DNA of 64,000 bases from Desulfobulbaceae bacterium (GTDB taxonomy: Bacteria > Desulfobacterota > Desulfobulbia > Desulfobulbales > Desulfocapsaceae). The number at the start of each line of letters is the position of its first letter. Positions within the stretch are counted from its first letter, which is position 1. The notes beneath the pieces were generated by a model. It saw only the letters and a program-made list of their open reading frames with translations, was not told the origin of the DNA and searched no databases. The translations under genes were made by a program, and so were the position numbers. The stretch lies in the NCBI GenBank assembly GCA_003249645.1, contig QKIH01000035.1:6495-70494 (forward strand). The letters run 5' to 3'. Below, in pieces: positions 33,618-64,000 of this stretch.

Positions 33618-33620
33618 GAT

Positions 33621-35129: not shown

Positions 35130-35141
35130 AGGGTATGCATT

Positions 35142-37723: not shown

Positions 37724-37726
37724 AAT

Positions 37727-38964: not shown

Positions 38965-39428
38965 TCCGGGCTCTATTACTGCTCTTTCTTGCAGTTGTTT
39001 CATTGTCAGGCTGCGCCGCAACAAAGCCCGGCAAAACGGTCTTTGACTACGAGCAGGAAGCCAGCGAGGCCTATGCTGGCGGCAGGTATGATGTGGCTGT
39101 TAACCGTTATGAATACCTTGTTGAGCAGGTACCGAAAGACCCGAATTTCTGGTTCAGGCTGGCAAACTCCTATGCCAAAAACGGTGAACCGGAAAAAGCC
39201 GTTGTGGCCTATCAGAATACCCTGCTCCGCGACAGCACCTATGAAAAAGCATGGTATAATCTCGGTATCATCCAAATGCAGCAGGCACTGAAGACGTTTA
39301 TCGACATGCAGAAAGCCATGCCGCCGAACAGCCCAGTCCATTCGCTTGCTGAAGAGAAAATGAACGGTCTTTTTCTCCTGCTCGGCCAGAATCCAGATGA
39401 AGAACATCCTGCAGCCGACACCAAATAG
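38946..39428 (+). CDS. TPR-repeat lipoprotein (TadD-like)
   Basis: 160 aa. Lipobox LSGCAA and TPR repeats (FWFRLANSYAKNGEPEKAVVAYQNTLLRDSTYEKAWYNLG). Confidence 0.6.
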   Translation: MAGRYIIRALLLLFLAVVSLSGCAATKPGKTVFDYEQEASEAYAGGRYDVAVNRYEYLVEQVPKDPNFWFRLANSYAKNGEPEKAVVAYQNTLLRDSTYEKAWYNLGIIQMQQALKTFIDMQKAMPPNSPVHSLAEEKMNGLFLLLGQNPDEEHPAADTK

Positions 39429-47156: not shown

Positions 47157-47168
47157 AACACTACCTCC

Positions 47169-48671
47169 TTAATGAACCGCACAAGCTAAACATGGGTCAA
47201 ACGCACGTACAATACGAGCCGCCTCTATCGGATTATCCTTATCCTGAACATAGGTTCCAATAAGAGCCTGCTCCACCGGTCCTGAGACCTCCTTGTCATC
47301 TTTGGGTGAACAGTTCCAAGTTGTCGGAACGATACAGTCGTAATTACTGACCTTCGAGTTTTCGATGCTGATCCAGTGTCCAAGCGCCCCTCTCGGTGCC
47401 TCTGTCAGCCCGGCCCCTTTTCCTGAGGCAGGAATTGTAAAATCGGCACAGGCAGGCTGCCCCGGCTCTAGTTTTTCAATCCATTCCTCCATTCTGTCGA
47501 GCAGAAGCTGCAGTTCGATAATTCTGATAGCATGGCGGCCAAGACATGAATCAAGCTCCTCAACAGTGCGCCCGATCTGGCGCAGGAACTGATCTGTATA
47601 CTGCTTGAGCAAAGAGTCCCCTGGCCTTGCATAAGCGACCATCACCCTGGACAAAGGACCGACTTCCATAGGCTCACCGTTGTATCTCGGGGCCTTAATC
47701 CAGGAATATGCCCCAGATTTATTCGGTTCAGGATTGGTTTTTCCTCTGCCGGAATCGCTTGAATATTTCGAATATTTCACCTGTTCGGTGATACTGGCGG
47801 TGTCTACCTCGGAGAATGTGCCGTTGATCAACACTCCCGGTTCAAACACCTTGTTCGTATTACCTTTTGCTTGAGCAAATGAACCGTAGCTGAGATAATT
47901 GCCGCAGCTCTTCCCGAGTTGCCAATACTCAGGAAATTCGTTTGCCACCGCAAGGACATCATGTATGTATTCCGTCTCAAGAAACTCGCGAAGCTGCCTC
48001 GTCTTAGTCCTGCAAAGAGCGATTTTCTTTGTTGTCACCTGCTCAGTTACACCACCGGGGACATTTGAGGCCATATGGGGCATCTTGCCTGAGAAAATTG
48101 CAACAAGCTGGTGTGCCAGCGCACGTATATCCATTGCAACAAAATAGTTTTTCAACGCTGAGATATTTACCTCAGCGTTCTGAATATATCGCGTTTCATA
48201 ACGCGGCAGAAAAGGTGCCGCAGGGAATAATTTTTTAGAACGCATTTCCTGCTGAACCCACGACTTGATGTCAAGCAGCATTCTGTCTTTGCCCTGATAT
48301 GCCAGGATACCCTTAACATCGATAAAATCCATGGCAGACAGATGATAGAAATGTGTCACGTTATTGTGAAAATAATTGGCTCCCAGCATGATGTTTCTGA
48401 TCAGGCGTCCATTGTCGGGAATTTCAAGACCGTATGCATCCTCCTGCGCCAAAGATGACGCCTGCCCCTGGGAAACCGGACAGACACCGCAGATGCGCTG
48501 CATTATCTGCTGAGCATCCAAGGGAGAACGTCCTCTCATTATTTGTTCAAAACCCCTGAACATTTCACCGACACATTTCGCATCGCTGATGTAATTGCCT
48601 TCAACTTCAAGATTTATGGCCAGATGCCCTTCAATCCGCGTAAAGGGATCAATACTCACTTTTTGCGCCAT
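47169..48671 (-). CDS. [NiFe] hydrogenase large subunit (short form, no C-terminal extension)
   Basis: 500 aa. Has RIEGH and RICGVCPVSQ near the N-terminus. The C-terminus is DPCLACAVH followed directly by the stop. Both Cys are TGT codons. Confidence 0.95.
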   Translation of the reverse strand: MAQKVSIDPFTRIEGHLAINLEVEGNYISDAKCVGEMFRGFEQIMRGRSPLDAQQIMQRICGVCPVSQGQASSLAQEDAYGLEIPDNGRLIRNIMLGANYFHNNVTHFYHLSAMDFIDVKGILAYQGKDRMLLDIKSWVQQEMRSKKLFPAAPFLPRYETRYIQNAEVNISALKNYFVAMDIRALAHQLVAIFSGKMPHMASNVPGGVTEQVTTKKIALCRTKTRQLREFLETEYIHDVLAVANEFPEYWQLGKSCGNYLSYGSFAQAKGNTNKVFEPGVLINGTFSEVDTASITEQVKYSKYSSDSGRGKTNPEPNKSGAYSWIKAPRYNGEPMEVGPLSRVMVAYARPGDSLLKQYTDQFLRQIGRTVEELDSCLGRHAIRIIELQLLLDRMEEWIEKLEPGQPACADFTIPASGKGAGLTEAPRGALGHWISIENSKVSNYDCIVPTTWNCSPKDDKEVSGPVEQALIGTYVQDKDNPIEAARIVRAFDPCLACAVH

Positions 48672-49111: not shown

Positions 49112-50545
49112 ATGAGTTTGGACAATCAATATCAGCATAAATGGAAAATACTCGGTTCGGTAGGCACCGGTGTCTTTCTGGCAACCGTTGACGGAAGCAT
49201 CGTCAACGTATCCCTACCGACCATGGTTGAGTCGCTGCATACCAGCTTTACCCTTATTCAATGGGTCGTTCTCTCCTATCTGCTGAGTGTAACCACATTG
49301 CTTTTAGGTTTTGGCAGACTGGCTGATATTTTCGGCAAAAAGAAAATATATCAGACCGGTTTCGTCATCTTTACCCTCGCATCGGTCTGCTGCGGCTTAT
49401 CACAAACTGTACACCAGCTCATAATCTTCCGAGTATTCCAGGGGATTGGCGGTGCTATGATCATGGCGCTTGGCCCTGCTATTACTACCCAGTCATTTCC
49501 TCCTTCGGAACGCGGCAGGGCTTTGGGGACAATCGGTCTGATCGTCTCCATCGGTATTGTTGTCGGACCCGCCCTTGGCGGTTTTATCCTTCAGCTGCTC
49601 AGCTGGAACTGGATATTTTACGTCAATCTTCCTTTCGGTATCGTCGGACTCTGGATGGTCGGCAAATTCATTCCAGCCATGGCCCCTGCACATCAGCAAC
49701 GTTTTGATGTTGCCGGCGCCATAATTCTTTTTATCACAGTCTTCTCTCTGCTCATCGGCTTGAGCCTGAGTCAGCAGTATGGTTTTGGTGATATTAAAGT
49801 TATAGCCCTGATCTGTATTGCCGCAGTTGCTCTAGTTATTTTCATTATGGTCGAGAACCGGCTGGAGCATCCGATGATTCATCTGTCACTTTTTCACAAC
49901 CCGCTGCTCAGTGTTAATCTGATCACCAGCTTTATCAGCTTTTTTGCCCTTGGAGGCATTTTCATTCTTATACCGTTCTACCTTGAAACTATTCTTGGTT
50001 TTCCATCAATGAGGGTTGGCCTTCTGATGAGTGTAATCCCGGTCATGATGGGAATATGTTCTCCTCTGTCAGGAAATCTCGCCGATAAGATCGGTTCAAG
50101 ACCGCTGATCATAACAGGACTACTTATCCTTTCACTCAGCTATCTTTTCGCCAGTCTCCTGAAAGCAGACGGTTCTGCCCCCGCTTTTATCCTGCACATA
50201 GTCGGTATAGGAATAGGTACGGGGATTTTCCTTTCCCCAAACAACAGTTCTATTATGGGAGCAAGCCCGAAACAGCATCTTGGTGTCGTATCAAGCCTCA
50301 TGGCCCTTTCACGGACCCTCGGCCAGACGGTAGGCATATCCGTTATCAGCACCATCTGGGCCCTGCGCATTCATCATCTTGCCGGAGACTTCGGACACAC
50401 CAATGTCAGCGCTGCGCCAATCCCTCTGCAGATGGCCGGTATGCAGTTTGTTTTTGTTATCGTAAGTTTTCTGGTGATGCTGGGACTTGGCCTGTCTATT
50501 TACGGATACATTCTTGAACGGCGTCAACAGACCGTACAGCAATAA
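49112..50545 (+). CDS. MFS transporter, DHA2 (EmrB/QacA-like, 14-TMS) family
   Basis: Starts MSLDNQYQHKWKILGSVGTGVFLATVDGSIVNV. About 14 hydrophobic segments and a GRLADIFGKKK motif. The ORF-track extension back to 48914 was rejected. Confidence 0.9.
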   Translation: MSLDNQYQHKWKILGSVGTGVFLATVDGSIVNVSLPTMVESLHTSFTLIQWVVLSYLLSVTTLLLGFGRLADIFGKKKIYQTGFVIFTLASVCCGLSQTVHQLIIFRVFQGIGGAMIMALGPAITTQSFPPSERGRALGTIGLIVSIGIVVGPALGGFILQLLSWNWIFYVNLPFGIVGLWMVGKFIPAMAPAHQQRFDVAGAIILFITVFSLLIGLSLSQQYGFGDIKVIALICIAAVALVIFIMVENRLEHPMIHLSLFHNPLLSVNLITSFISFFALGGIFILIPFYLETILGFPSMRVGLLMSVIPVMMGICSPLSGNLADKIGSRPLIITGLLILSLSYLFASLLKADGSAPAFILHIVGIGIGTGIFLSPNNSSIMGASPKQHLGVVSSLMALSRTLGQTVGISVISTIWALRIHHLAGDFGHTNVSAAPIPLQMAGMQFVFVIVSFLVMLGLGLSIYGYILERRQQTVQQ

Positions 50546-50558
50546 AGTAACAGAGCTT

Positions 50559-51509
50559 ATGAACCCGATTGAATCTGTTTTAAAACACTACCCGATGCTG
50601 CTGCTCGACGGAGCGCTTGCTACCGAACTTGAGAACAAAGGCTGTAATCTCGCTGATCCCCTCTGGTCTGCTCGAATTCTGTTTGATCAGCCAGAGCTCA
50701 TCGCCGCTGTTCACCATGATTATTTTACAGCCGGAGCTGACTGTGTTATCACCGCCAGCTATCAGGCAACAGTCCAGGGACTGACAGCCAGGGGGCTGAC
50801 AGAAAGTGAAGCCTTGCGGGTGATTTCTTCTTCTGTCACCATAGCAAGGGAGGTAAGGGATACCTTCTGGAAAGACATAACAGATAGACGAAACAGGCCA
50901 AAACCGCTGGTTGCAGCTTCCGTCGGCCCTTACGGCGCCTACCTGGCAGACGGCTCTGAATATCGCGGCAACTACGGGATTACCCGAAGAGAATTATCAG
51001 ATTTTCATCGCAGCAGACTTGATGTGCTGATAGCCACACAACCGGACATCCTTGCCTGCGAAACGATTCCCTGCCTCGATGAGGCTCTGGCTCTTGCAGA
51101 ATTGCTGAGGGAATACCCCAATCAATTCTGCTGGATCAGTTTCACTGCCAAAGATGATTCCAAAACCTGTAACGGCGATTCCATATTGGAATGCGGAAAA
51201 CAGCTCAATGCCTTTGAGCAGGTTGCTGCCATAGGGATCAATTGCACTGCACCGCAGTACGTCGGTTCACTCATTAATAAGCTCAGGAGCGTTACAGACA
51301 AACCGATCATTGTTTATCCAAACAGCGGGGATCAATACGAACCGCTTACCAAAACGTGGATAAAGGCTGAAAGCCATGCATGCTTTTCTGATCTTGCAAA
51401 AAACTGGTATGAACAGGGAGCTAAAATCATCGGCGGCTGCTGCCGCACCTCTCCAGCCGACATTGCTAACATTGCCGGCTGGCTGAGAGGGGCAAACTCG
51501 CTCCCTTAA
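50559..51509 (+). CDS. homocysteine S-methyltransferase
   Basis: LLLDGALATELE...DPLWSA...DYFTAGADCVITASYQA...GGCCRTSPADI are MmuM/YbgG-type motifs. ATG at 50559. Confidence 0.9.
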   Translation: MNPIESVLKHYPMLLLDGALATELENKGCNLADPLWSARILFDQPELIAAVHHDYFTAGADCVITASYQATVQGLTARGLTESEALRVISSSVTIAREVRDTFWKDITDRRNRPKPLVAASVGPYGAYLADGSEYRGNYGITRRELSDFHRSRLDVLIATQPDILACETIPCLDEALALAELLREYPNQFCWISFTAKDDSKTCNGDSILECGKQLNAFEQVAAIGINCTAPQYVGSLINKLRSVTDKPIIVYPNSGDQYEPLTKTWIKAESHACFSDLAKNWYEQGAKIIGGCCRTSPADIANIAGWLRGANSLP

Positions 51510-53824
51510 AATTTCAGTCTGAAAAAGCGGATCATCCAGGGCAGGATAAACATATCCATCATCAAAGCGGTAAAGATGGTAAGAACCATCAATCCACCAA
51601 AGCTTTTGATTGGCGCAAAATCAGACAGGACGAACAGACCGCATCCGGCACCCATGACAACCGATGTAAACATCAGGGCTCTGCCGGTACTCCAGATCGT
51701 ATTCTCAAGCGCTTTTTCGATAACGCTCTCATCGCGTATTTCACGGCTGTAGCGTATGAGGACGTGGATGGTATTATCAACGGAGATGCCAATTGCAATC
51801 GAACTGATCATTGCTGTTGCAAAATTCAGCGACAGGCCAAGCCCTCCCATAACACCCATGGTCAACACAACCGGCAGGATATTCGGCACCATCGAAATAA
51901 TGGCGCCTTTCAGTGAACGGAGAAGCCAGAGCATCAGGAAAAAAATGACCGCCAGGGTAATGAAAAAAGAATTTGTCAGACTCTCCAGAATCGATATGAT
52001 CTGCTGCGACATCCTGGCGCTGTCACCGGTGACTACAACCTGCAGCCGCTTATCGACATTGGTCTCAATATAGTTGTTCAGATCATCCAGCAGCTGAATC
52101 TGTTCGCCGGTGCCGGCAATTTTCAACCGGGCAGAAACCCTGGCAACAGAATTGTCATCAGCAAGGAGTGCGGAAAGCTGATCAGACTGGCTGGTGCCTC
52201 CGAGCATAAAGAGAATCTCAGAAATCAATCCCTCTGCATGCTCACGGGTAAGCACATTTTCATCGGAATGCTCAAGTTTACTAAAAATCCATTGAAAAAG
52301 ATCAACGATTGATGTGACAGTTCCAACATCCTGTCTTGCTTCCAGAAAATGCTCGATCTTCTGTATTTCGAGCAAGGCCCACGGCTGCTCAAAACAGTTT
52401 TTCGGTCCCTTGACTTCCATTTCCACCGTACCAAAACCAAGCAGTTTTTTCTGTACAATGGTTAAGCCCTGAATCGAAGGAGCCTCTTCAGGAAGAAAGG
52501 CAACCATACTCGTTTCAACTTTTATTCTGTTTATTCCAACCCCTGCAAAAACGAGAAGCAGAGCACAGATTGCCACTACTTTGGCACTATGCCGCCGGTT
52601 AATGAAAAGAGCAAAGGTAATAACTTTGGTAAAAAGCGAGTTGCGGTATTTCTGGAGAACATCCCCGGGAGGCACAGAAAGAAAGGAGAGGACAAGCGGC
52701 ATCATTACAGCAATCAGGATATAACCGATCAGGATGCCGAAAGAGGACCAGAGCCCCAGTTGACGGATATTGGAAAGATCTGAAACTGCCAAGGTGAGAA
52801 AAGCGGCAGCCGTAGTAAGCGAGGTGAGAAAACATGCTGTGAGCATGTTCTCCATCGTTGAAACAATTATTTCGGTACGATCCCTGCTCGACTTGGCATG
52901 TTCATAATAATGGGCAAGAACATGAACCGCATCAGAGAAACAGACAATGGCAATCATCGATGGGAGCATCGCTCCGACCGAACTAAGCGTTTCACCGAGC
53001 AATGCCATGATGCCGAGGGTCCACCCTACTGCCAGCATGGTGATGCCCAGCGGGAGAAGAACACCGCGTACAGTTCGAAAGGCAAAAAAGAGCAGCACGA
53101 CCATAACCGCCCAGGTCAACCAGAAGAACCGTTTAAAGTCGGTTTCAATTGCATGAGACGAATCAGTGAGCAAAGGAGTAAGCCCTGTAAGATAAACTTT
53201 TACATCTTTAGAAATATTCAACTCACTCATTTTGCTGTTAATGGCAGAAACAGCAACAGCACCTTTTCCCATGCCTCTAGTCAGCGGAGGCAGGGTGATG
53301 TTAATCACCGTAACCTTGCCGTCAAAAGAGAGCAAAGTCCCAGCCCACATCGGATTTGCCAGAACCTCTTTTTTGATCTGATCAAGCTGCGGCTTTGAGA
53401 GATCAGGGGCGGCAAACAGCGGTTTCAGCCCCATCTCACCATACTCATCCACTGACAAGTCCTTAACCGTTGTCAGGGATTCAACTTTCATCACACCGTC
53501 GATCTGTTTAATGGACGATGTAAGTTTTTGAACCAGTGCCAGATTATCAGCGGTAAAGATATCATCTGCTTCAATGATGAGCAGCAGAGGCTCGCCCTGG
53601 CCGAATTTCTTTGCCATGGAGATCAGGTCCCTGCCGGAATCATCCTGCGCGGACACCTTGCCCTGCTTCTGCTCAAACAGGACTTTCGGATTAATAACAA
53701 AGGGGGAAAGGACAAACAGCGAGATCAGCGCGATCACGGCAAGAACAGCCAAACGATACCGCAGTAATGCTCCAACAAGAGTCCGCTGCCATGATTTTTC
53801 AGCCATAATGCCTCTATTTCTCAT
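51506..53824 (-). CDS. RND-superfamily exporter (MMPL/HpnN-like, HAE3-type)
   Basis: 772 aa. Two 6-TMS bundles, each preceded by a large periplasmic loop. SSD-like TM region. Confidence 0.85.
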   Translation of the reverse strand: MRNRGIMAEKSWQRTLVGALLRYRLAVLAVIALISLFVLSPFVINPKVLFEQKQGKVSAQDDSGRDLISMAKKFGQGEPLLLIIEADDIFTADNLALVQKLTSSIKQIDGVMKVESLTTVKDLSVDEYGEMGLKPLFAAPDLSKPQLDQIKKEVLANPMWAGTLLSFDGKVTVINITLPPLTRGMGKGAVAVSAINSKMSELNISKDVKVYLTGLTPLLTDSSHAIETDFKRFFWLTWAVMVVLLFFAFRTVRGVLLPLGITMLAVGWTLGIMALLGETLSSVGAMLPSMIAIVCFSDAVHVLAHYYEHAKSSRDRTEIIVSTMENMLTACFLTSLTTAAAFLTLAVSDLSNIRQLGLWSSFGILIGYILIAVMMPLVLSFLSVPPGDVLQKYRNSLFTKVITFALFINRRHSAKVVAICALLLVFAGVGINRIKVETSMVAFLPEEAPSIQGLTIVQKKLLGFGTVEMEVKGPKNCFEQPWALLEIQKIEHFLEARQDVGTVTSIVDLFQWIFSKLEHSDENVLTREHAEGLISEILFMLGGTSQSDQLSALLADDNSVARVSARLKIAGTGEQIQLLDDLNNYIETNVDKRLQVVVTGDSARMSQQIISILESLTNSFFITLAVIFFLMLWLLRSLKGAIISMVPNILPVVLTMGVMGGLGLSLNFATAMISSIAIGISVDNTIHVLIRYSREIRDESVIEKALENTIWSTGRALMFTSVVMGAGCGLFVLSDFAPIKSFGGLMVLTIFTALMMDMFILPWMIRFFRLKF

Positions 53825-54815
53825 CCATAGCAGGTGCAGACAATGCCTGCAGAACCGTCTCGGACAGTTTCAACTCGTTCTGCTCTCCGGATAGCCACTG
53901 CTTCAACCACAACTGCTCTTGTGCTGTTATTTCGGCAACAGGTTCAATGAATTGAATTCCATAGCGTTGCAAGACCTTTTCTGCATTGTCCGTTCTCTGC
54001 TGAAAAGCGTTTTCCAGGGTATTGCCAAGCTCCTTCAACCGAGCAGAAACTTCATTCTTTTCCTCCACGCTCAAGGCCGCAAGAAACTGGTTGTGCAACG
54101 TCCAGATCCCGTAGGAATAGGCTACCGGCACCCGATAAATATATTTGAGACAGGTATGCCATCTCTTCATGATCAGTAGAGGCAGCGGTGCGAGCACACC
54201 GTCCACCTGGGCTGATTTCAGATCGTTCAACACCTTTTTCACTTCAAGCTGCCTGAATTGCAGCCCGGTCGATTTCAGCTCTCGAATTGCTGCTGAATCT
54301 GCATCTGGCAGCCAGAAAACCTGCTGTTTCCACTCATCCAGAGTTGAAAGATCCTTCGATGAGCCGAAATACATGAAACCAAAATCAACAAAGTCTATGG
54401 CCTCAACATCGTTATTGCTCATATTTTTCAGCAGCATTTCATCCAGCCCGGTTCTCACTTCAATTACCTTCTCTCTGGAAGGGAAGGCAAACGGTAAACT
54501 ATAGGCTAGACTCTCCGGACCAAGACCTAACGAGGCAAAATCCGTTTCTATGGCCAGGCAGCCATCAAGCTCGCCGGTCACCACCCTCTCACCGAACCTG
54601 CTCTGCTGGTCTTTCATGAAATGCAGTTCGATATTTATTTTCCCTTCACTTTCAGTCCTGATACGATCAACCTGATCAAGCATCAGTTGATATTCTTTTG
54701 TCTTCTCAGGAACCGGAACGCCGATACGGATATCAACGGCGAGGCTGTTCTGCGGCAACAGGATACTGATGGTAAAGAGCAACGCAGTCAAAAAGCTGTA
54801 ATATTTTCCTGCCAT
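53814..54815 (-). CDS. periplasmic solute-binding-like protein (DctP/TatP-like)
   Basis: Starts MAGKYYS with a signal peptide. The IRIGVPVPEKT...INIELHF...GELDG pattern resembles TRAP-type binding proteins. The assignment is tentative. Confidence 0.45.
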   Translation of the reverse strand: MAGKYYSFLTALLFTISILLPQNSLAVDIRIGVPVPEKTKEYQLMLDQVDRIRTESEGKINIELHFMKDQQSRFGERVVTGELDGCLAIETDFASLGLGPESLAYSLPFAFPSREKVIEVRTGLDEMLLKNMSNNDVEAIDFVDFGFMYFGSSKDLSTLDEWKQQVFWLPDADSAAIRELKSTGLQFRQLEVKKVLNDLKSAQVDGVLAPLPLLIMKRWHTCLKYIYRVPVAYSYGIWTLHNQFLAALSVEEKNEVSARLKELGNTLENAFQQRTDNAEKVLQRYGIQFIEPVAEITAQEQLWLKQWLSGEQNELKLSETVLQALSAPAMDEK

Positions 54816-54819
54816 GGAA

Positions 54820-55689
54820 TCACTTCCCCTTTTCAAGGCCGGGCTGACACGACCCTGTCTGTCCAAGTTTATCAATGGTCTGCTTCGCCTGTTTGAGGGC
54901 AAAGTCATTCATCAGGGTAAACTGATCTGAGACGGGCAAACCTGACTGGATCACTTTTTTAAGTTTTACACACCCTGCTTCCACTTCTCCGTTATTGGTC
55001 AGCCAAATGCCATAGAATACCTGCGGCATCAGATTTTTTCCTGCCGCCTGTTCAACAGCCCGGTTGAAATAATCGCGAACGCTCTGATCGTCTCCGTATT
55101 CCATAGAAGCCAGTAAAGCGAGGTACAAGGTAGCCATTCCGCTGCGATAATCGGCCTCCAGCTCTGTAACTCTCTGCATCATGAGCTGAATCATGGGCAG
55201 GTCTGCAACAGCATCGAGATCATCTTTTCGTACCCGTACCCAGTCCAGCCAGACCGAACCCGTAGAAAAAAGAGTCGCAACATCTTTCACAGAAGTATTT
55301 TTTACCACCGTTTCAAAATCGGCATAACTGCTGGATCTGGCCGACACCATGCCCGGAATGATCTTTGCAGACGAAGTAAGGGCGTATTCAAGCGCACGGG
55401 CTGTCAGACTGCGTGCCCGTTCTTGATCATCAACAAAATACGCACCGTAAAGACTATAAAGCTGCGCTGCGGCTTCGAGCAGTTTTGGATCATCCGGAGC
55501 CTTGCTCAGCATGCTTTCAATCATGATGATATAGGTCGGCAGCCCGTCTTTAACAATGGTGCTGTCCGGAACTCTGCCCATGCCGCTCAGAATATCGTTA
55601 GCTGAAGGCCCCATTGACAGGGAACAACCTGTTAACAGCAAAGCCACAAGGAGGGAAAAGCAAGAACCGGCAATGATTTTTCTGGTCAT
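54820..55689 (-). CDS. TatT-family (TRAP-T-associated TPR) lipoprotein
   Basis: 289 aa. Lipobox LLTGCS. An all-helical TPR-like protein whose pattern (LPTYIIMIESMLSKAPDDPKLLEAAAQLYSLYGAYFVDD...) matches my recollection of the TatT family. Confidence 0.6.
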   Translation of the reverse strand: MTRKIIAGSCFSLLVALLLTGCSLSMGPSANDILSGMGRVPDSTIVKDGLPTYIIMIESMLSKAPDDPKLLEAAAQLYSLYGAYFVDDQERARSLTARALEYALTSSAKIIPGMVSARSSSYADFETVVKNTSVKDVATLFSTGSVWLDWVRVRKDDLDAVADLPMIQLMMQRVTELEADYRSGMATLYLALLASMEYGDDQSVRDYFNRAVEQAAGKNLMPQVFYGIWLTNNGEVEAGCVKLKKVIQSGLPVSDQFTLMNDFALKQAKQTIDKLGQTGSCQPGLEKGK

Positions 55690-56663
55690 ATATTCCCTCC
55701 TAACTCCCCCTTGTTGAGATGCGGCTTATTTTTACTGAAAAAGCCAAGCGCCAGAAACAGCAGCAAACCCGGAAGTCTAACAATAAGCAAACAGAAACGG
55801 ATTATAAACATCAACTCAGCACCACGGACATATCCGCTTTTTGCAAAGCTTAACATTGATATTGATTCACCAAGTCCAAGACCGCCCGGAGTCACAGGCA
55901 TTCCATTGGCAATCATTACAAAGGGAATGTTAACGGCTGAAGTGGAAAAAGACAATGGCGTATCGAGCATTTGACCGCTGATCTGAAACCCGATCGCCAT
56001 GCTGATTGCAGCCGTGAAGGAAAATAAGGAAGCAATTCCAACCCACAAAAGCAATCGTCCCCACGTTGACGATTGACCGTTTTCGCCTGCTCTTCGTTTT
56101 TCCTTTATCCCCATCCAAACAATGGTTGCCACTGTAACAAGCAGAGTCGCAACACATGATCCTGACAGAAAAAGAATATAGCTCGGCTCGGAAAACGACG
56201 GTCTAACCCAGAGCAGAACTATCAGCGCCAATGCAAAAAAAGCTGCCAGACCAAGCAATCGATCAAGAAAGACTGAATTAATCGTCTTGGTCTTAGCATT
56301 GGAGACGATACGTGTAATATAATAAAATCGGCTTACTTCAGCTCCAAGCGTCCCCGGAGTAACCATTTGAAAAAACTGGCCAATCCAGGAATACACCAGC
56401 ACCTTTCTCAAAGGCAGGTTGATCCTGTTAAGACGGAGCAGACACCACCACCTGATACTTTGAAAGGCGAGGGAAAAAAGAAGAACTAAAAGTAAGGGAA
56501 GAATCCACCAGGATGAAACGATGGACAGTAAGGTTTCGGTGGAAAGCTTATTTTGAGAAATAAGCCAGCCAAGAGCGGCTATTGCAATGCCGCTCTTAAC
56601 AATGGTGAGCCCTGTTTTTGAAAGAGAAATAAGTCCGATAAAATTTCTAATTCTTGCGAACAC
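55686..56663 (-). CDS. flippase-like membrane protein (LPG-synthase-TM / UPF0104 family)
   Basis: 325 aa with ~8 TM helices. Has the GxxGAEVSRFYY-type motif region (TPGTLGAEVSRFYYI). Confidence 0.6.
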   Translation of the reverse strand: MFARIRNFIGLISLSKTGLTIVKSGIAIAALGWLISQNKLSTETLLSIVSSWWILPLLLVLLFSLAFQSIRWWCLLRLNRINLPLRKVLVYSWIGQFFQMVTPGTLGAEVSRFYYITRIVSNAKTKTINSVFLDRLLGLAAFFALALIVLLWVRPSFSEPSYILFLSGSCVATLLVTVATIVWMGIKEKRRAGENGQSSTWGRLLLWVGIASLFSFTAAISMAIGFQISGQMLDTPLSFSTSAVNIPFVMIANGMPVTPGGLGLGESISMLSFAKSGYVRGAELMFIIRFCLLIVRLPGLLLFLALGFFSKNKPHLNKGELGGNI

Positions 56664-57360
56664 TGGCTACAAATTCACTTACACCCTTCTCAGTAATGCT
56701 GGTGGTACGATCATTACCTTCACAAACTGCACCGCGAACACCGATAATATCACAATCGATATCAAAAACCATGTCCATGTGCTCTTTTCTTACAGAACCG
56801 GCAAGAGCTGTTCCAAGACCAAGTTCTTTCGCCAGGTTCACGAAATCTTTTAATTCCTGAACAGACATATTGTCAAAAAGGGTAGAACCGTCTTTGATCT
56901 TGGTGTCAAGCATAGCAACATCAGAGCCGGAGTCTTTAGCTGCTCTAACAACATCGAGTGCAGAGACGCCGCCGAACTTTGCAAAATCGGCATAACCGCA
57001 AGCTACTTTAATAACATCGGTTCTTACCATGTTAATAGCTTTAACAGATGCAGACATCATTGCCAGGGCGTCGTCATAATTTTTTGCACCATACAGACCG
57101 GCTTTCAAATAATCCGCACCGCAGTGTGCAGCACCAAAAGATGCTAACGCGATAGTACCTGGAATATTTGGAAGATCACCTAATGCGGCGCTGCAGAGTA
57201 CCGGTTCATCTTTGAATTCTTCACAAATAGCCTTTGTTACCCATGGCCCTTGAGCACCCAGAGAACCTTCTTTTACGTTCTTGATATCAACTATATCGCA
57301 ACCGCCGCGAACAACGATACGAGCTTCTTCAAGGGATATCGGACTGATCAGTACTTTCAT
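56647..57360 (-). CDS. MfnB-like (DUF556) class I aldolase-type enzyme, homologue of 4-(hydroxymethyl)-2-furancarboxaldehyde-phosphate synthase
   Basis: 237 aa. Collinear with archaeal MfnB as recalled: VLISPISLEEA...GGCDIVDIKNVKEGSLGA..PWV, GADYLKAGLYG, DVAMLDTKIKDGSTLFD and CDIIGVRGA.C. The catalytic Lys (DIKN) and the D..K (DTKIKDG) are conserved. Confidence 0.8.
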   Translation of the reverse strand: MKVLISPISLEEARIVVRGGCDIVDIKNVKEGSLGAQGPWVTKAICEEFKDEPVLCSAALGDLPNIPGTIALASFGAAHCGADYLKAGLYGAKNYDDALAMMSASVKAINMVRTDVIKVACGYADFAKFGGVSALDVVRAAKDSGSDVAMLDTKIKDGSTLFDNMSVQELKDFVNLAKELGLGTALAGSVRKEHMDMVFDIDCDIIGVRGAVCEGNDRTTSITEKGVSEFVASVRKN

Positions 57361-57912
57361 TGAAACACCTTTTAAAATTTGTTCGGTTAAAATTAAAAAT
57401 TACAAATTTAAATTCTGTATATAAAACTGTCAAGCTCTCGGCTCAACTCATTAATGAATAAACTCAACATTAATAATTGAATTATTGCAGGAACGCAACT
57501 ACTCATGATAAGTTTTGTTACTATTCCCTAACACAGCAGTCATTCAACCCGCCGTAACCGGGGAAAATATCACCCTCGATGCTTTACATAATCACACCAT
57601 ATTATTACTGAATAACTTCTATAAGCTATCGAAGAAAACAGTGAGCTTGAGAAAAAAGAACCTCCCCAGAAAAATCACATTTTATTCGTATGATAATGAA
57701 AAAGGAATAAAAGACATCAGCCCAGAGGTGTTTTGTTCTCTCCCCGTCTCTTAAATATGATACTGGCACCAACCGCCCATTTATGCTATTTAAAAGGGTC
57801 TTCTAAGCATGAAGACGAACGCATATTAACAATATATTAAGTTCAGCTCAACACGATTTCGTTTTTGGGCCGACGTTTGATTTTTATCAACAGGACACGT
57901 TCACCAAAAGAA

Positions 57913-58929
57913 ATGGCCAACACATTCCAGAAGCATCTTCGCAATTTCCTTATCACAGCAAGGATTGAATTAGCCGGTTTTTCATTTGTAGCAGTCATCG
58001 GGGCAATGACTGTCTGCGGAACCGCCATATCACTGCCTGATGTCTTCATGCTGTTTCTTTTCAATGTTCTCCTGGTCATCTTCGGCTTCGTGCATAACGA
58101 TTACGAGGATTACGAAATAGACAAACGCCTCCCGGAACTTTCCAACAGACCCTTAGTCAATGGCTCAGTTTCCACCAAAACTGCTTTCTACTGGTCTCTG
58201 CTACTGTTTATTCTACCGGTTCTTCTGGCCCATATCTATTACGGCAGCCTGCAGACCACCCTGCTGCTCCTTGCAGCGTTTATCCTTGCGGCAACATATA
58301 ACAAGTTTTCCAAAAGTATGCTCGGTGCCGATATTTTTTACGGCATTTCATCAGGAGCACTCTTTCTTTTCGGTTCTTCCGCAGTTCTAAAGGATCAAGA
58401 CCATTTTTCAACCTTTACACTTATGATGACAGGGGTCATGGTGCTTGAGCATCTCTTTTTCAATATTGCCTCAGGCCAACTGAAAGACGTACGCTTTGAC
58501 CGCGAAGCTGGGGTTAAAACCCTTGCCGTTGCAATGAGCCACGTAGAAAACGGCGGCACCTGCATACACCTGCCGTTCAAAATTCTCTGCCTAGTGATAA
58601 AAATCCTTACCTATTCAATTATTTTTTCGTTATTCATCTTTTCAATACTGCCAGTCTACACATGGCAGATTATTGTCTTGGGGATTTTTACCTGCGGGTC
58701 GTTCTACCTTACCATGGCACTTCTGAAAACACCGATTGAACAGCGTGATAAAATCCTGGAATACTCGAGGAAGCAGGAGATGTTTTCAAAATCTTTGACA
58801 CCAATAGTCCTGTTGCCTCAAATAGGCATAATCTGGCTGCTTATTTTTACAGTCGGCCCTGTTATCTGGTTTTCTTTTTTCAATTTTATCCTTAACCGGG
58901 AATTTCTCGGCAATCCCAAGACTTTTTAG
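57913..58929 (+). CDS. UbiA-family prenyltransferase
   Basis: About 9 TM helices and the first Asp-rich motif NDYEDYEIDKR. The start is taken as ATG 57913 (MANTFQ); the ORF track starts at 57865. Confidence 0.8.
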   Translation: MANTFQKHLRNFLITARIELAGFSFVAVIGAMTVCGTAISLPDVFMLFLFNVLLVIFGFVHNDYEDYEIDKRLPELSNRPLVNGSVSTKTAFYWSLLLFILPVLLAHIYYGSLQTTLLLLAAFILAATYNKFSKSMLGADIFYGISSGALFLFGSSAVLKDQDHFSTFTLMMTGVMVLEHLFFNIASGQLKDVRFDREAGVKTLAVAMSHVENGGTCIHLPFKILCLVIKILTYSIIFSLFIFSILPVYTWQIIVLGIFTCGSFYLTMALLKTPIEQRDKILEYSRKQEMFSKSLTPIVLLPQIGIIWLLIFTVGPVIWFSFFNFILNREFLGNPKTF

Positions 58930-58936
58930 CATTGCC

Positions 58937-59665
58937 ATGGACAAAGCAGCAACCCCAAGTGCCCGTTTTATCAAGGCCGTCAAATTGCAACTTGCCCATA
59001 AAGCAATTCAAGCACTGTCGTTCTTTCCACAAGCAGCCCTTAAAAATTGCGCCCAGTTCGGCCAGTCTGTTGAATTCGCCTGGTGGATTCAAAGATATTT
59101 CGGTAAGTCCGCACCTTTTTTCCCCAGCCGTGAAAGGCTATGGCAGCAGATTCTTCATGAGCTCCCTGCAAACAATGAGCTTTATGGTTATGAATTCGGC
59201 GTTGCTTACGGATATCTGACAAACTGGTGGCTGAACAGGTGCCCTTCTATTATAAAATGGTTCGGTTTTGATACATTTACCGGCTTGCCTGAAGCCTGGC
59301 TTCATTTTGATCAGGGCGCATTCGATGCAAAAGGAAAACCTCCTGAAATAGATGATCAGCGAATTAGCTGGATCATCGGCAAAGTTGAAGAGACCTTCAC
59401 TCCAGAAACGTTTTCAGAACTGGCTGCCTCATGCAGCGATTCCGGAACCCGAATTTTCCTCTTTGACATGGATTTATACCAGCCGACCCGACAAGCTCTG
59501 GATACTATTCTCCCCAGACTGAAGAAAGGTGATATCCTCTATTTTGATGAAGCAGGTGATCTTGATGAACGCCGGGCTATCATGGACGTTTGTGATATCC
59601 TTCGGGAAACAACCAATCTTATCGGCTACACACCTATGGCTATGGCTCTTCGGAGGACCATATGA
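58937..59665 (+). CDS. class I SAM-dependent methyltransferase (TylF/macrocin O-methyltransferase-like)
   Basis: 242 aa. Has YEFGVAYG, FGFDTFTGLPE and FLFDMDLYQPTRQALDTILPRLKKGDILYFDE, as in the TylF family. Confidence 0.75.
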   Translation: MDKAATPSARFIKAVKLQLAHKAIQALSFFPQAALKNCAQFGQSVEFAWWIQRYFGKSAPFFPSRERLWQQILHELPANNELYGYEFGVAYGYLTNWWLNRCPSIIKWFGFDTFTGLPEAWLHFDQGAFDAKGKPPEIDDQRISWIIGKVEETFTPETFSELAASCSDSGTRIFLFDMDLYQPTRQALDTILPRLKKGDILYFDEAGDLDERRAIMDVCDILRETTNLIGYTPMAMALRRTI

Positions 59666-60756
59666 AACAAAAAGTTGTACAGATAATAGCGCCTTGCTGG
59701 GATAATAAGGGCGACAGACTGATGATAGATTCGCTTTACCAGGAACTTGGCGAGCGTTACTACCTGCCGACCCCTTTCTGGAACATGGTCCCGGCTGACA
59801 AGTTCTGGGGGCCCGTGAATTTTTTCAAAATGAGCCTGCTGGGAGGAAAACGTTTTTTCCAGACCTTGAGACACGGCAAGCCGTCCGTCTTTCTCGATGC
59901 CTCAGGCTATCAACTGGGCGATCCATGGGTGAAACTGAGCCTTGCCCTCAGTATGCGTCTTAATTTTTACCAATACTACAAGAAAAAAGGGGTTAAGCTG
60001 ATAATGCTGCCCCAGTCTATGGGGCCGTTTAATGAACCGCTGGTAGCCTCGAATGCTGCCGGTATCCTCCAGCTGGCTGATCTAATCTTTGTCCGTTGTG
60101 AAGAATCAAGGCAACACGCACTTTCCATCGGCTGCCCAGAATCAAAACTCTTTCTCGCACCTGATTACTCAAATCTGGTATGCCCACCACCGCCTTCTTC
60201 CCCATCCAGATGGGCCGATGTCGTCTGTATTGTCCCCAGTGTAAGAATGCTCGACAAAACCCCGGCCAAGCTCAAAGACCACTATATTGATGCCATAAAA
60301 TATTATATCGAGCTCATCCACCAAAAAGGTCTAACCCCCTGTTTTCTTGTCCATCAGGAAGAGGATCTTCAACTGGCGATCTCAATCAATAACACCCTGA
60401 ATGAAAAGATAATGATGCTTGATCCTGAACCACAAGAGGCAAAGCAGATTCTCGGTGCCTGCCATACAGTAATCGCCTCAAGATTTCATTCAATCGTCAG
60501 TTCGCTCTCGCAGGCTACACCCTGTATCGGCACCGGCTGGACACATAAATATCAATCCTTGTTCAGAGACTACGAGAGTGAGCAATATCTCTTCTCGCGT
60601 TTTGATTCAAAAGATGCGATTGTGGAAAGTTTTGAGCAGATAATAAACGAGGAAAACCGAATTCTCCTTAAAAAGACGCTGCAGAGAAAAGCAGAAGATA
60701 ACCGCCAGCGCACCCGAGAGATGTACGCCAAGCTGATTGAGACCATCGAAAGCTGA
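59662..60756 (+). CDS. polysaccharide pyruvyl transferase family protein
   Basis: 364 aa. N-terminal NKGDRLM and C-terminal VIASRFHSIVSSLSQATPCIG are typical of the WcaK/CsaB-like PS_pyruv_trans family. Confidence 0.8.
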   Translation: MKQKVVQIIAPCWDNKGDRLMIDSLYQELGERYYLPTPFWNMVPADKFWGPVNFFKMSLLGGKRFFQTLRHGKPSVFLDASGYQLGDPWVKLSLALSMRLNFYQYYKKKGVKLIMLPQSMGPFNEPLVASNAAGILQLADLIFVRCEESRQHALSIGCPESKLFLAPDYSNLVCPPPPSSPSRWADVVCIVPSVRMLDKTPAKLKDHYIDAIKYYIELIHQKGLTPCFLVHQEEDLQLAISINNTLNEKIMMLDPEPQEAKQILGACHTVIASRFHSIVSSLSQATPCIGTGWTHKYQSLFRDYESEQYLFSRFDSKDAIVESFEQIINEENRILLKKTLQRKAEDNRQRTREMYAKLIETIES

Positions 60757-60832
60757 ACCAGAAAAAAAACGTCCCCTATCCTGCAGCCCAGCTGTATCGC
60801 AGCCATGGTTCAGGATAGAAATGCGTTGCTGA

Positions 60833-61855: not shown

Positions 61856-61894
61856 AATTATCCAACTTCAACCATACCAACCTGCAAGACCATA

Positions 61895-62821: not shown

Positions 62822-62830
62822 GTTATCCCC

Positions 62831-63934: not shown

Positions 63935-64000
63935 GTCAGCAGTCCACCGTCAACCGGCTTCGATTCGAGTTCCCAGAACATTTTCGCCCCTCAAGAACCC

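Follow-up and report, generated by a model that had tools for sequence, protein, structure and literature searches.

A conserved gene cluster around an MfnB homologue of a Desulfobulbaceae bacterium, predicted to make and export an envelope lipid

Five minus-strand genes at 51506-57360 of the window (the whole stretch of 64,000 nucleotides analysed here) make up only one arm of a larger conserved unit, a cluster of 14 genes that runs from 51506 to about 67000, that is, 3 kb beyond the window end. The explanation favoured here, with a confidence of roughly 0.55, is that the cluster makes a specialised envelope lipid and delivers it to the outer membrane, the five genes being the export arm together with the first committed enzyme; none of the steps has been tested biochemically. 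The product is inferred to be most likely a furan-isoprenoid (glyco)lipid, because isoprenoid enzymes dominate the conserved partners of bacterial MfnB, although no such product is known and no literature on the product of an MfnB-isoprenoid-export cluster was found. On this view, an envelope lipid not yet described is to be expected in many bacterial phyla.

The five-gene operon and its MfnB homologue

A preliminary description of this DNA had proposed a tight operon linking an MfnB-like protein to a flippase-like protein, a TatT/DctP-like pair and an RND exporter. All five open reading frames are found on the minus strand where it had placed them, and profile searches (Pfam, NCBIfam) agree with all five family assignments. 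The junctions between consecutive genes are -17, -4, +4 and -11 nt, the last of which (DctP/RND) becomes +7 nt with the RND start at 53806 chosen by an independent gene caller. For the DctP-like gene, the start at 54815 (Met32), already adopted in that description, is preferred over the longest-ORF start at 54908, since a signal peptide follows and the independent gene call agrees.

The first gene of the operon (56647-57360, minus strand) encodes a predicted 4-HFC-P synthase of 237 aa (PF04476 4HFCP_synth, 1e-71), which is 53% identical to the MfnB of M. jannaschii (MJ1099, PDB 4rc1; E=1.6e-66). The conservation of its catalytic motifs, claimed earlier from the sequence alone, has been borne out by the invariance of D25, K27, K86, D152 and K156 across 15 homologues. 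K156 is equivalent to Lys155 of the M. jannaschii enzyme, which has been named as catalytic (PMC11365854). This identity to a characterised enzyme, together with the conservation of every catalytic residue, argues for unchanged chemistry. The protein groups with genuine MfnB and not with another aldolase family (it is grouping with the latter, in a protein without activity, that would have refuted the preliminary description); the MfnB tree was built by neighbour joining, without support values. On the other hand, it falls below the NCBIfam equivalog cutoffs (271 bits vs 341 and 304), and this counts against the favoured explanation.

Conservation across MfnB loci

The survey of bacterial MfnB neighbourhoods suggested in the preliminary description has been carried out by sampling loci (numbered L below) with two peptide patterns and 10-kb flanks, and isoprenoid and export partners recur in it. 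An isoprenoid-type partner is present at 34 of 54 bacterial loci vs 2 of 20 archaeal ones, where it is a polyprenyl synthase only; IPK-type kinases occur at 29/54 bacterial and 0/20 archaeal loci, polyprenyl synthases at 27/54 and 2/20, and UbiA at none of the 20 archaeal loci. Among the conserved partners of bacterial MfnB, isoprenoid enzymes (the IPK-like kinase, polyprenyl synthases and UbiA) predominate; MfnE-type kinases occur instead in methylotroph-type and archaeal MfnB loci.

The five-gene linkage is not due to chance: at least 10 loci of several phyla show it again, with the genes rearranged, and a lack of conservation between MfnB and the TatT, DctP and RND genes, which would have refuted the earlier reading, is not what was seen. 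The same gene set is found, with its order shuffled, in L001, L073, L074, L075, L076, L079 and L080, and partially in L002, L004, L007 and L009. The TatT/DctP/RND trio accompanies MfnB in Desulfobulbales (Desulfobulbaceae), Planctomycetota, Lentisphaerota (Victivallales, Lentisphaeria) and metagenomic relatives, staying with the biosynthetic genes despite extensive rearrangement, and, among close TatT homologues, the four whose contigs could be used all adjoin MfnB. Proteins in which the IPK is fused to TatT were found in two independent MAGs and one database cluster, with a kinase-TatT fusion in Lentisphaerota. Loci of monoderm Propionibacterium have the biosynthetic core and lack the trio, which speaks for the favoured explanation. 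Against it, the relative L079 has MfnB, TatT and DctP without an adjacent RND gene, and the flippase-like and methyltransferase genes are missing from some otherwise complete clusters. The distribution of the MfnB cluster across phyla is patchy; carriers available in culture include Propionibacterium acidifaciens DSM 21887, P. australiense and Massilia sp. H-1. Apparent MfnB-IPK (L038) and RND-IPK (L076) fusions look like frameshift artefacts.

Proteins of the export arm

The lipobox and signal peptides of the export proteins fit the localisation proposed for them. The RND transporter (51506-53824, minus strand; 772 aa, or 766 aa from 53806) is of the MMPL/HAE3 type (PF03176 MMPL, 1e-36) and has sterol-sensing and Patched SSD matches as well. 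Its best NCBIfam match is TIGR00921 HAE3 (212 bits, under cutoff), the HpnN and BstA models match it weakly, and its best sequence relatives in the PDB are MmpL4/5/3 and HpnN. Hydropathy indicates about 12 TM segments and two large loops, the Asp-containing motifs FSDAVH and SVDNTIH falling in TM regions, and the predicted role of the protein is to take the lipid out of the inner membrane. The DctP-family periplasmic binding protein (53814-54815, minus strand, 333 aa from Met32; PF03480, 6e-16; NF037995 TRAP_S1, 109 bits vs a cutoff of 50) has a signal peptide ending in SLA, before VD. A Trp aligns with the conserved carboxylate-binding Arg of five solved TRAP SBPs, and is found at this position in 10 of 10 orthologues; the protein is predicted to be a periplasmic lipid shuttle without the carboxylate-clamp Arg.

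The TPR lipoprotein (54820-55689, minus strand, 289 aa; PF16811 TAtT, 2e-39) carries the lipobox LLTG-C22. In an AF2 model (pLDDT 83) its TatT fold is confirmed, and Foldseek places the model nearest to the lipid binders Tp0956 TatT (TM 0.72-0.76), Es_TatT (8g52, 0.70) and BstC (7t1s, 0.5-0.6). It is predicted to be a lipid-binding acceptor or the partner of the binding protein; TatT relatives bind lipids, Es_TatT and Tp0956 being long-chain fatty acid binders (PMC11713862). Finally, the flippase-like membrane protein (55686-56663, minus strand, 325 aa, GTG start) belongs to the family of the MprF N-terminal domain (PF03706 LPG_synthase_TM, 4e-27; TIGR00374, 40.5 vs a cutoff of 43.2) and has about 6-8 TM segments. 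Its gene is accessory, being present in L001 and L074, absent from L080, and also absent from L073, where an MsbA-like ABC exporter is present.

The remainder of the cluster

An AT-rich intergenic region (57361-57864), presumed to hold promoters, separates the MfnB operon from the divergent UbiA operon; it contains one promoter-like match (57433-57405, minus strand), in a total count at chance level, and no Rfam match. The UbiA-family intramembrane prenyltransferase (57865-58929, plus strand; 354 aa from TTG, or 338 aa from ATG at 57913; PF01040, 5e-28) has the Asp-rich motifs NDYEDYEID and DVRFD and about 8-9 TM segments, its best NCBIfam matches being the archaeal-type prenyltransferase PRK12884 and DGGGPS, all under cutoff. 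It is followed by a putative SAM-dependent methyltransferase (58937-59665, plus strand, 242 aa), weakly Methyltransf_24/TylF-like (PF13578, 8e-4, below cutoff), with orthologues in the same cluster at L001, L004, L007, L073 and L074, and by a polysaccharide-pyruvyl-transferase-family protein (59662-60756, plus strand; 364 aa, or 344 aa from 59722; PF04230, 2e-27), kept in L001, L007, L073, L074, L079 and L080.

The minus strand then carries a radical SAM enzyme (60833-61855, 340 aa; PF04055, 1.5e-26) with the motifs CNFRCKFC and CQNCWYNC, Cys-rich in its C-terminal (SPASM/twitch-like) region. Its relatives are AhbC/AhbD/MftC/PqqE, each matched below cutoff, and an enzyme of the same family neighbours MfnB in 24/54 bacterial loci; in Bacteroidota, a radical SAM gene lies directly before MfnB. 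Next to it are a MipA/OmpV-family outer-membrane protein with a signal peptide (61895-62821, minus strand, 308 aa; PF06629, 2e-34), kept in L001, L004, L073 and L080, and a GT-B glycosyltransferase of the MJ1255/VC2487 family (62831-63934, minus strand, 367 aa; PF13528, 5e-60; TIGR00661, 137 bits, under cutoff), kept in L004, L007, L009, L073, L074, L075 and L080. For UbiA, the pyruvyl-transferase-like protein and the radical SAM enzyme, the roles given below are guesses that rest on the names of their families.

The last 51 nt of the window (63950-64000, minus strand) hold the 3' end, with its stop codon, of an IPK-like AA-kinase gene that continues to about 64756. Genes past the window end were called on L077, which overlaps the window at 62226-64000 with 100% identity: the kinase is followed by a polyprenyl synthase (PPS, about 64811-65917), and this by a degenerate PPS paralogue (about 65930-67000; hhalign against PPS, 93% probability, E=3e-7). 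The cluster thus extends past the window on one and the same contig of 83,407 bp, which also carries P0131. By its sequence the kinase is assigned to the IPK type and not to the MfnE type (NF040647 IPPK_Arch, 149.8 bits vs a cutoff of 120), and it plausibly fills the role of MfnE. Thus, the earlier statement that the window lacks other mfn and formylmethanofuran dehydrogenase genes stands for mfnA/C/D/F and fwd, not found among about 45 annotated ORFs, and for fwd/fhc genes, not found in the window, but has to be qualified for this kinase. Passing a genuine IPK cutoff, the enzyme may simply make IPP, which is counted against the favoured explanation.

Proposed pathway and alternative explanations

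The MfnB homologue would condense two glyceraldehyde-3-phosphate into 4-HFC-P, a step for which the homology is strong. In methanofuran synthesis, MfnE converts a related furan phosphate to the diphosphate; judging from conserved adjacency, the IPK-like kinase would act likewise on 4-HFC-P, giving a DMAPP-like electrophile. The furan is inferred to be joined to an isoprenoid in the inner membrane by the membrane prenyltransferase UbiA and a heteromeric short-chain polyprenyl diphosphate synthase, the order and regiochemistry being left open; tailoring by four further enzymes (radical SAM, methyltransferase, GT-B glycosyltransferase and pyruvyl-transferase-like) would, going by family assignments, yield a decorated glycolipid. 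By analogy with BstABC and TatT-TatP, the lipid would reach the periplasmic leaflet through the flippase-like protein and be extracted by the RND pump, driven by protons; the DctP-like protein would then ferry it through the periplasm and hand it to the TatT lipoprotein, and its receiver in the outer membrane may be the MipA-type barrel. The synthesis and export to the envelope of a furan- or triose-derived lipid or metabolite, as first suggested, is therefore supported and extended rather than corrected.

Several alternatives have to be considered. The final product might be an isoprenoid glycolipid without a furan, perhaps an archaeal-like ether or polyprenyl lipid still exported to the outer membrane, if MfnB supplied another triose-derived block or the radical SAM enzyme rearranged the furan. 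The likeness of UbiA to archaeal DGGGPS-type enzymes and of the polyprenyl synthase to archaeal IdsA/GGPPS, the archaeal IPK cutoff passed by the kinase, the sub-equivalog MfnB score and the radical SAM gene directly before MfnB in Bacteroidota all speak for such a lipid; it is nevertheless considered unlikely, if a real possibility, given the identity and intact catalytic residues of MfnB, and homologues of G1P dehydrogenase or GGGPS were not seen in the clusters. A more doubtful possibility is that the product, instead of being a structural lipid of the outer membrane, is a small molecule, secreted or periplasmic, that the RND pump exports from the cell: for example, a prenylated furan with a signalling, redox-shuttle or antimicrobial function. 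Secondary metabolites are commonly exported by RND pumps, a prenyltransferase, methyltransferase, radical SAM enzyme and polyprenyl synthase together recall the logic of quinone-type biosynthesis, and the patchy phyletic spread is like that of a specialised-metabolite cluster; however, the pump is MMPL/HAE3-like, a lipid-exporter type, without an adjacent membrane-fusion or TolC-type partner, and the conserved set also includes a lipid-flippase-like protein and an outer-membrane protein of the MipA type. The lipid binding of TatT relatives (PMC11713862) points the same way.

It is very unlikely that the trio takes up an external hydrophobic nutrient (e.g., fatty acids), as proposed for TPAT, with its adjacency to MfnB reflecting co-regulation. 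TatT/DctP pairs are classically importer components, a canonical TPAT locus has the same pair, and Es_TatT and Tp0956 bind long-chain fatty acids (PMC11713862), but the import permease DctQ/DctM is absent and an RND gene takes its place in every cluster, L079 excepted. The trio also travels with biosynthetic genes through extensive rearrangement, and in Lentisphaerota TatT is fused to the cytoplasmic kinase of the pathway; as far as we are aware, RND proteins of this type act as exporters in bacteria. Hardly any weight is given to the remaining alternative, in which MfnB serves ordinary methanofuran/methylofuran cofactor synthesis for C1 metabolism beside incidental transport genes. We know of MfnB otherwise only from that pathway, and a methylotroph-type context with an MfnE-like kinase does exist at the Burkholderiales loci L057, L058 and L066; yet mfnA/C/D/F and fwd/fhc genes are missing from the window, the kinase is of the IPK type, the isoprenoid/export linkage is conserved across phyla, and the carriers include Propionibacterium, Akkermansia and Bacteroidota, which are not, as far as we know, known for H4MPT-dependent C1 metabolism.

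Comparison with known systems

With methanofuran/methylofuran biosynthesis (MfnA-F) the cluster shares its first enzyme, 53% identical to MJ1099, and the linkage of an AA-kinase-superfamily kinase to MfnB, as MfnE is linked. The kinase is, however, IPK-type rather than MfnE-type, MfnA, C, D and F were not found in window or cluster, and the partners are instead polyprenyl synthases, UbiA, a radical SAM enzyme, a glycosyltransferase and envelope export proteins. The hopanoid pump HpnN and the mycolate/siderophore MmpL pumps belong to the same RND subgroup (MMPL/HAE3-like, with sterol-sensing-domain similarity), likewise within a lipid biosynthesis cluster, although the RND protein scores far under the HpnN and MmpL3 equivalog cutoffs and no dedicated periplasmic SBP or TatT partners are known to us in those systems. 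The flippase-like protein has the Pfam family (LPG_synthase_TM) and multi-pass topology of the MprF flippase domain, but it lacks the aminoacyl-PG synthase domain, scores slightly under the TIGR00374 cutoff, and is accessory, being absent from some clusters and, in L073, absent where an ABC exporter is present. TPAT (Treponema pallidum Tp0956/Tp0957/TatQM; Enhygromyxa Es_TatT) likewise has its TatT lipoprotein beside a P component of the DctP family, which in a canonical locus lacks the carboxylate-binding Arg too, and provides the best structural match of the TatT-like protein (Tp0956, TM 0.72-0.76). A canonical TPAT locus has DctQ/DctM in the position of the MMPL/HAE3-type RND, whereas here export is the predicted direction and the genes are embedded in a biosynthetic cluster.

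Functionally, the nearest precedent that the export genes have, by analogy, is BstABC, a sterol transporter, along with the TatT lipid-binding family; this precedent is not named in the preliminary description. In Methylococcus capsulatus, BstABC comprises an RND inner-membrane pump, a periplasmic binding protein and a TatT-family protein, and adjoins the biosynthetic genes of a lipid thought to be carried to the outer membrane (PMC10942540, PMC11713862). The two systems differ in that BstB is a phosphonate-binding protein (PF12974) and the binding protein here is DctP (PF03480), in the score of the RND protein on the BstA model (20 bits vs a cutoff of 1400), in a TM-score of only 0.5-0.6 to BstC, and in neighbours that are MfnB and isoprenoid enzymes instead of sterol enzymes. 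Even so, BstC is within the top five structural matches of the TatT-like protein, and both have a three-gene RND/binding-protein/TatT set beside lipid biosynthetic genes.

Gene content and limits of the cluster

The five minus-strand open reading frames that the preliminary description had placed between 51506 and 57360 are all present at those positions, and HMM searches upheld the family proposed for each of them. The first (57360-56647) codes for a homologue of MfnB, the 4-HFC-P synthase (PF04476, 1e-71, 241.6 bits against a cutoff of 22.4). It is followed by the genes for an MprF-type flippase-like membrane protein (56663-55686; PF03706, 4e-27), a TatT-like lipoprotein (55689-54820; PF16811, 2e-39, 136 bits), a DctP-family binding protein (54815-53814; PF03480, 6e-16, 59 bits against a cutoff of 23.4; NCBIfam NF037995, 109 bits against a cutoff of 50) and an MMPL/HAE3-type RND pump (53824-51506; PF03176, 1e-36), whose similarity to HpnN, MmpL3 and BstA is weak. 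The junctions measure -17, -4, +4 and -11 nt, with the overlaps described earlier; the last one, between the DctP-like and RND genes, becomes +7 nt with an RND start at 53806. The longest frame of the DctP-like gene starts at 54908, and the start originally chosen for it, 54815, is considered correct because the signal peptide results support it and an independent gene call agrees. Promoter-like and terminator-like sites were found at chance frequency, and for that reason operon boundaries were not drawn from them; no Rfam family was matched in the region 50000-64000. At its 3' end, the RND gene (51506-53824, minus strand) is convergent with a plus-strand homocysteine S-methyltransferase gene (50487-51509), and the two 3' ends overlap by 4 nt, leaving no terminator space between them. 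An MFS gene located upstream overlaps the methyltransferase frame by 59 nt, so that one of these starts is probably later than the longest frame implies.

Membership of the five genes in a conserved cluster for biosynthesis and export is nearly certain; this cluster comprises 14 genes from 51506 to about 67000, past the end of the window. A 504-bp intergenic region divides the five from a plus-strand set coding for a UbiA prenyltransferase, in which both Asp-rich motifs are present, a methyltransferase (weak match) and a protein of the polysaccharide-pyruvyl-transferase family. Converging on this set are minus-strand genes for a radical SAM enzyme (CxxxCxxC and a Cys-rich C-terminus), a MipA/OmpV outer-membrane protein and a GT-B glycosyltransferase of the MJ1255/VC2487 family, the window ending 66 nt upstream of the start of the latter. 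A search of the 64-kb window found neither a polyprenyl synthase nor a kinase. A contig from the same sample, 100% identical to window positions 62226-64000 over 1775 bp, extends the window by 4.3 kb, and three further genes with the same orientation lie beyond the window end; these code for an isopentenyl phosphate kinase (IPK)-like protein of the AA-kinase family, a short-chain IdsA/GGPPS-like polyprenyl diphosphate synthase (PPS) and a 356-aa PPS paralogue. The final bases of the window are the last 16 codons and the stop codon of the kinase, and database records place the kinase protein on the 83,407-bp contig that also carries the proteins of the window.

Searches of PDB sequences gave no match for the PPS paralogue or for the TatT-like protein, and fold searches or profile-profile comparisons were therefore needed. 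The 356-aa protein, which has no Pfam match, was recognized as a divergent PPS paralogue by hhalign (93%, E=3e-7), and its first Asp-rich motif is degenerate. By analogy, a PPS accompanied by a degenerate paralogue may be inferred to follow the non-catalytic subunit pattern of heteromeric prenyl diphosphate synthases.

The genes flanking the cluster are unrelated to it (NiFe hydrogenase, MCP, sensor kinase, MFS, homocysteine methyltransferase), and so are the remaining genes of the window (two pilus systems, UvrA, glycine cleavage system). The hydrogenase large subunit (46245-48671, minus strand) reaches 628 bits on the NiFeSe model NF033181 (cutoff 600); a selenocysteine stop has been ruled out, the protein being a complete Cys-type enzyme that ends in DPCLACAVH, with Cys at the position expected for selenocysteine. 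The small subunit, with a twin-arginine signal, comes after it. The pilus genes, all on the plus strand, form a type IV set from PilM through the secretin (2137-8253) and a Tad/Flp set (27590-40089) with TadE/G-like proteins, RcpC, a secretin, an ATPase with an FHA domain, two TadB/C-like proteins and a TPR protein.

The MfnB homologue and the IPK-like kinase

The MfnB homologue is 53% identical to Methanocaldococcus jannaschii MfnB (PDB 4rc1) over 215 residues (E=1.6e-66), and scores 271 and 268 bits on the NCBIfam equivalogs NF002573 and NF002575, below their cutoffs of 341 and 304. Its catalytic residues are conserved: D25, K27, K86, D152 and K156 do not vary among 15 homologues and align with Asp25, Lys27, Lys85, Asp151 and Lys155 of MJ1099. 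In MJ1099, Lys27 is the Schiff-base lysine, and Asp25, Lys85 and Asp151 are also counted among the catalytic residues. The residue of MJ1099 named as catalytic is Lys155 (PMC11365854), equivalent to K156 of the homologue. Family membership is supported by the sequence and by the catalytic residues, while the conversion of two GA3P to 4-HFC-P is inferred; that MfnB chemistry has been retained is, on sequence grounds, a prediction held with some confidence. In a neighbour-joining tree without support values, the archaeal MfnBs, including MJ1099, are separated from the bacterial ones, and the window protein falls in a subclade rich in transporter-linked loci.

The kinase passes the isopentenyl phosphate kinase equivalog cutoff (NF040647, 149.8 bits against 120), and a Bacteroidales orthologue reaches 162.6 bits on the same model. 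Its neighbours are MfnB and TatT and not genes of the mevalonate pathway. The subfamily is small, with 38 representative clusters found at E<=1e-30, and the genuine IPKs are marked by a more distant relative that is fused to an IDI-2-like domain. The cytoplasmic kinase and the periplasmic TatT lipoprotein are joined in a single reading frame in two independent Lentisphaerota MAGs (L004:10692-12368 and L009:6407-8122, both plus strand; L numbers denote MfnB- or TatT-anchored loci from other genomes), with both domains of full length and a linker in which the signal and lipobox of TatT are preserved. The same architecture was found in a 549-aa cluster (database protein P0165) when 1.84 billion representatives were searched exhaustively. 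The substrate of the fused kinase may be a lipid-linked monophosphate, on which it would act at the membrane. Another two apparent fusions, MfnB with kinase (L038:9887-11523) and RND with kinase (L076:6488-9199), are probably frameshift artefacts, and were counted as adjacency only because their domains are truncated and their Arg/His/Gly-rich linkers look out of frame. Among the four fusions initially counted as evidence, IPK-TatT alone has been retained.

Transport proteins

The TatT-like protein has a lipobox (LLTG|C), and Foldseek matched its AF2 model (pLDDT 83) to Tp0956 TatT (3u64, 4di3; TM 0.72-0.76), Es_TatT (8g52; TM 0.70) and, at a greater distance, BstC (TM 0.5-0.6). It is thus modelled as a periplasm-facing lipoprotein with the TPR-like fold of TatT, for which the binding of hydrophobic ligands is inferred from relatives. 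Lipid binding has been shown experimentally in these relatives, with fatty acids for Es_TatT and Tp0956 and sterols for BstC (PMC11713862). About one quarter of TatTs have been reported with non-TRAP partners, BstC being the sole case worked out (PMC11713862; PMC10942540).

The DctP-like protein has the family-7 extracellular solute-binding fold, according to both PF03480 and NF037995. At the position occupied by the carboxylate-clamp Arg (SiaP R147) in five solved TRAP binding proteins it carries Trp, a residue kept in 10/10 MfnB-linked DctP orthologues. The orthologue comparison used a SiaP sequence as its reference, and the alignment of the five structures independently supports the same correspondence. 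A canonical TPAT locus used as control (L078:10001-13881; TatT, DctP and fused DctQ/DctM) also has a DctP without the clamp Arg, with Phe instead. A change from Arg to Trp specific to RND-linked binding proteins was ruled out by this control, and the loss of Arg is therefore a trait of TatT-partnered binding proteins generally, which suggests that TatT-partnered TRAP binding proteins as a group take non-carboxylate ligands. The RND pump matches PF03176 in two stretches, and its hydropathy and the motifs FSDAVH and SVDNTIH give it the features of the MMPL/HAE3 group of the RND superfamily (12 TM segments, two large periplasmic loops and TM Asp residues); its scores do not reach the cutoffs of the HAE3, HpnN and MmpL3 subfamilies. 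Export of a lipid by the trio of TatT, DctP-like protein and RND pump is considered likely.

Conservation across genomes

A scan with the MfnB alignment, limited to one genome per species, gave 71 loci; close relatives of MfnB in metagenomes contributed four more, and relatives of TatT another three. Sampling of the loci relied on two peptide patterns, the flanks reached 10 kb at most, and many MAG contigs are short. Assumption-free clustering of the neighbouring frames identified polyprenyl synthetases, radical SAM enzymes of the window family and the AA-kinase as the commonest partners of MfnB. With home-built HMMs applied to 54 bacterial and 20 archaeal loci, an IPK-type kinase was counted in 29/54 bacterial versus 0/20 archaeal loci, a polyprenyl synthase in 27/54 versus 2/20, any isoprenoid-type partner in 34/54 versus 2/20 (polyprenyl synthase only) and any of TatT, DctP and RND in 13/54 versus 0/20. 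Methylotroph-type Burkholderiales and some archaea have an MfnE-type kinase instead. At least two of the trio adjoin MfnB in the window, in Desulfobulbaceae (L001), Planctomycetota (L002), Victivallales (L004) and Lentisphaeria (L009), and also in L074-L076, L079 and L080; L080, from an NCBI MAG, has 12 of the 14 cluster genes in a different order. Linkage of MfnB to isoprenoid and export genes therefore recurs outside the window in this survey, which the preliminary description had recommended. In L073 the flippase-like gene is missing and an MsbA-like ABC exporter is present.

Other lineages carry variants of the cluster. Bacteroidota loci show the order rSAM-MfnB-PPS-PPS-kinase plus an RND-like protein. 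Two of them (L010, Flavobacteriaceae; L011, Cyclobacteriaceae), over approximately 7-17 kb, have a 561-aa unknown protein, rSAM, MfnB, two polyprenyl synthases and the IPK-like kinase, followed by a 230-aa unknown protein, the RND-like protein and a 1179-aa protein in which an AMP-binding enzyme is fused to a class-III aminotransferase; the aminotransferase could, by analogy with MfnC, aminate the furan aldehyde. The monoderm Propionibacterium loci contain MfnB, kinase, polyprenyl synthases, UbiA and an asparagine-synthase-like enzyme, with no trio. Two of these belong to cultured actinobacteria, P. australiense (L022) and P. acidifaciens (L028), where the MfnB core and the asparagine-synthase-like amidotransferase occur without the exporter trio, and these strains would be convenient for experimental tests. 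A different context is that of seven loci (L005, L006, L012, L016, L031, L041, L058) from Planctomycetota, Obscuribacterales and some Proteobacteria, where MfnB adjoins an acyl-CoA-ligase-like enzyme of the AMP-binding type that has an HTH at its N-terminus, and where the 10-kb flanks are free of isoprenoid genes; these loci may follow the methylofuran route or represent a third function of MfnB. Finally, a HisA/HisF-family protein (PF00977) is directly beside MfnB in Methanothrix and relatives (Methanotrichales; L044, L048, L050, L054, L056, L059).

Proposed pathway and alternative explanations

The reading that we favour, synthesis and export of a furan-isoprenoid lipid, is given a probability of about 0.55; there are no experimental data and no product is known. 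The pathway would begin with the formation of 4-HFC-P by the MfnB homologue, a step based on strong homology. The IPK-like kinase would then make furanylmethyl diphosphate, as inferred from conserved adjacency and from analogy with MfnE, a sister family in the AA-kinase superfamily, and a heteromeric polyprenyl synthase together with UbiA would join the furan to an isoprenoid. Tailoring is assigned, again by inference, to the radical SAM enzyme, the methyltransferase, the glycosyltransferase and the pyruvyl-transferase-like protein. Passage of the product across the inner membrane would be the task of the flippase-like protein or, in some relatives, of an ABC exporter; the RND pump would extract it, and the binding protein and TatT lipoprotein would relay it across the periplasm, with MipA as a possible outer-membrane acceptor. 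The earlier idea of synthesis and export to the envelope is supported by the conserved linkage of MfnB with isoprenoid and TatT/DctP/RND genes.

Several rival explanations were considered, all of them judged less probable than this reading. Ordinary cofactor synthesis would agree with the family of the MfnB homologue; MfnA, C, D, E, F and Fwd/Fhc genes, already noted as missing, are not found among the approximately 45 annotated frames of the window or in the cluster, and within these limits the homologue shows no link to the other methanofuran genes. An uptake system could be proposed from the TatT and DctP-like proteins. DctQ/DctM, present in the control locus, are absent from the window cluster, from L073-L076 and from L080, and the RND pump occupies their position in MfnB clusters. 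A secreted small molecule could also leave through an RND pump; beside it stand the prenyl enzymes and a lipoprotein whose relatives bind lipids. The most probable rival is an isoprenoid glycolipid without furan, for which the MfnB homologue would supply another triose-derived building block or the radical SAM enzyme would further rearrange the furan. Whether the final product contains both furan and isoprenoid is an even call.

On a broader scale, a second use of 4-HFC-P can be put forward, only as a tentative proposal that may well prove wrong. In eight or more bacterial phyla, with carriers among Bacteroidota, the PVC group, Elusimicrobia, Desulfobulbales, Propionibacterium and Akkermansia, an IPK-derived kinase would convert this compound to the diphosphate, which would then serve as an allylic diphosphate does, giving rise to furan-isoprenoid lipids of a class so far unrecognised. 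Several diderm lineages would deliver these lipids to the outer membrane with a hybrid machine, in which the TRAP-type binding protein and the TatT lipoprotein, originally partners of a DctQM importer, would have come to work with an RND exporter. To our knowledge, 4-HFC-P is otherwise known only as a methanofuran precursor. If true, an enzyme believed specific to C1-cofactor synthesis would have a second role, a new lipid class not assigned by lipidomics would be predicted, and parts of TRAP importers would be re-usable for export. Culturable and host-associated bacteria are among the carriers (Propionibacterium, Massilia, Akkermansia-related bacteria and Bacteroidota).

Comparison with known systems

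The TPAT systems share TatT and the P component with the MfnB cluster, although the latter fails the test of their defining permease, DctQ/DctM. The sterol transporter BstABC is similar in that a trio of RND pump, periplasmic binding protein and TatT-family protein lies beside lipid biosynthesis genes, both in the window and in its relatives. However, the window RND pump scores only 20 bits on the BstA model (cutoff 1400), the binding protein belongs to PF03480 and BstB to PF12974, and BstC is only a distant structural match to the window TatT (TM 0.5-0.6), with no PDB sequence match. The export module is BstABC-like in its working and not orthologous to BstABC, export itself being inferred; if true, this would be the second independent lipid relay made of RND pump, binding protein and TatT, after BstABC. 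Within the library searched, no paper was found to describe MfnB linked to isoprenoid or envelope-export genes. Clusters that combine lipid biosynthesis with an RND relay of their own are a known kind of system; the present one is regarded as a variant of it, with a substantial chance that its product represents a new class of lipids.
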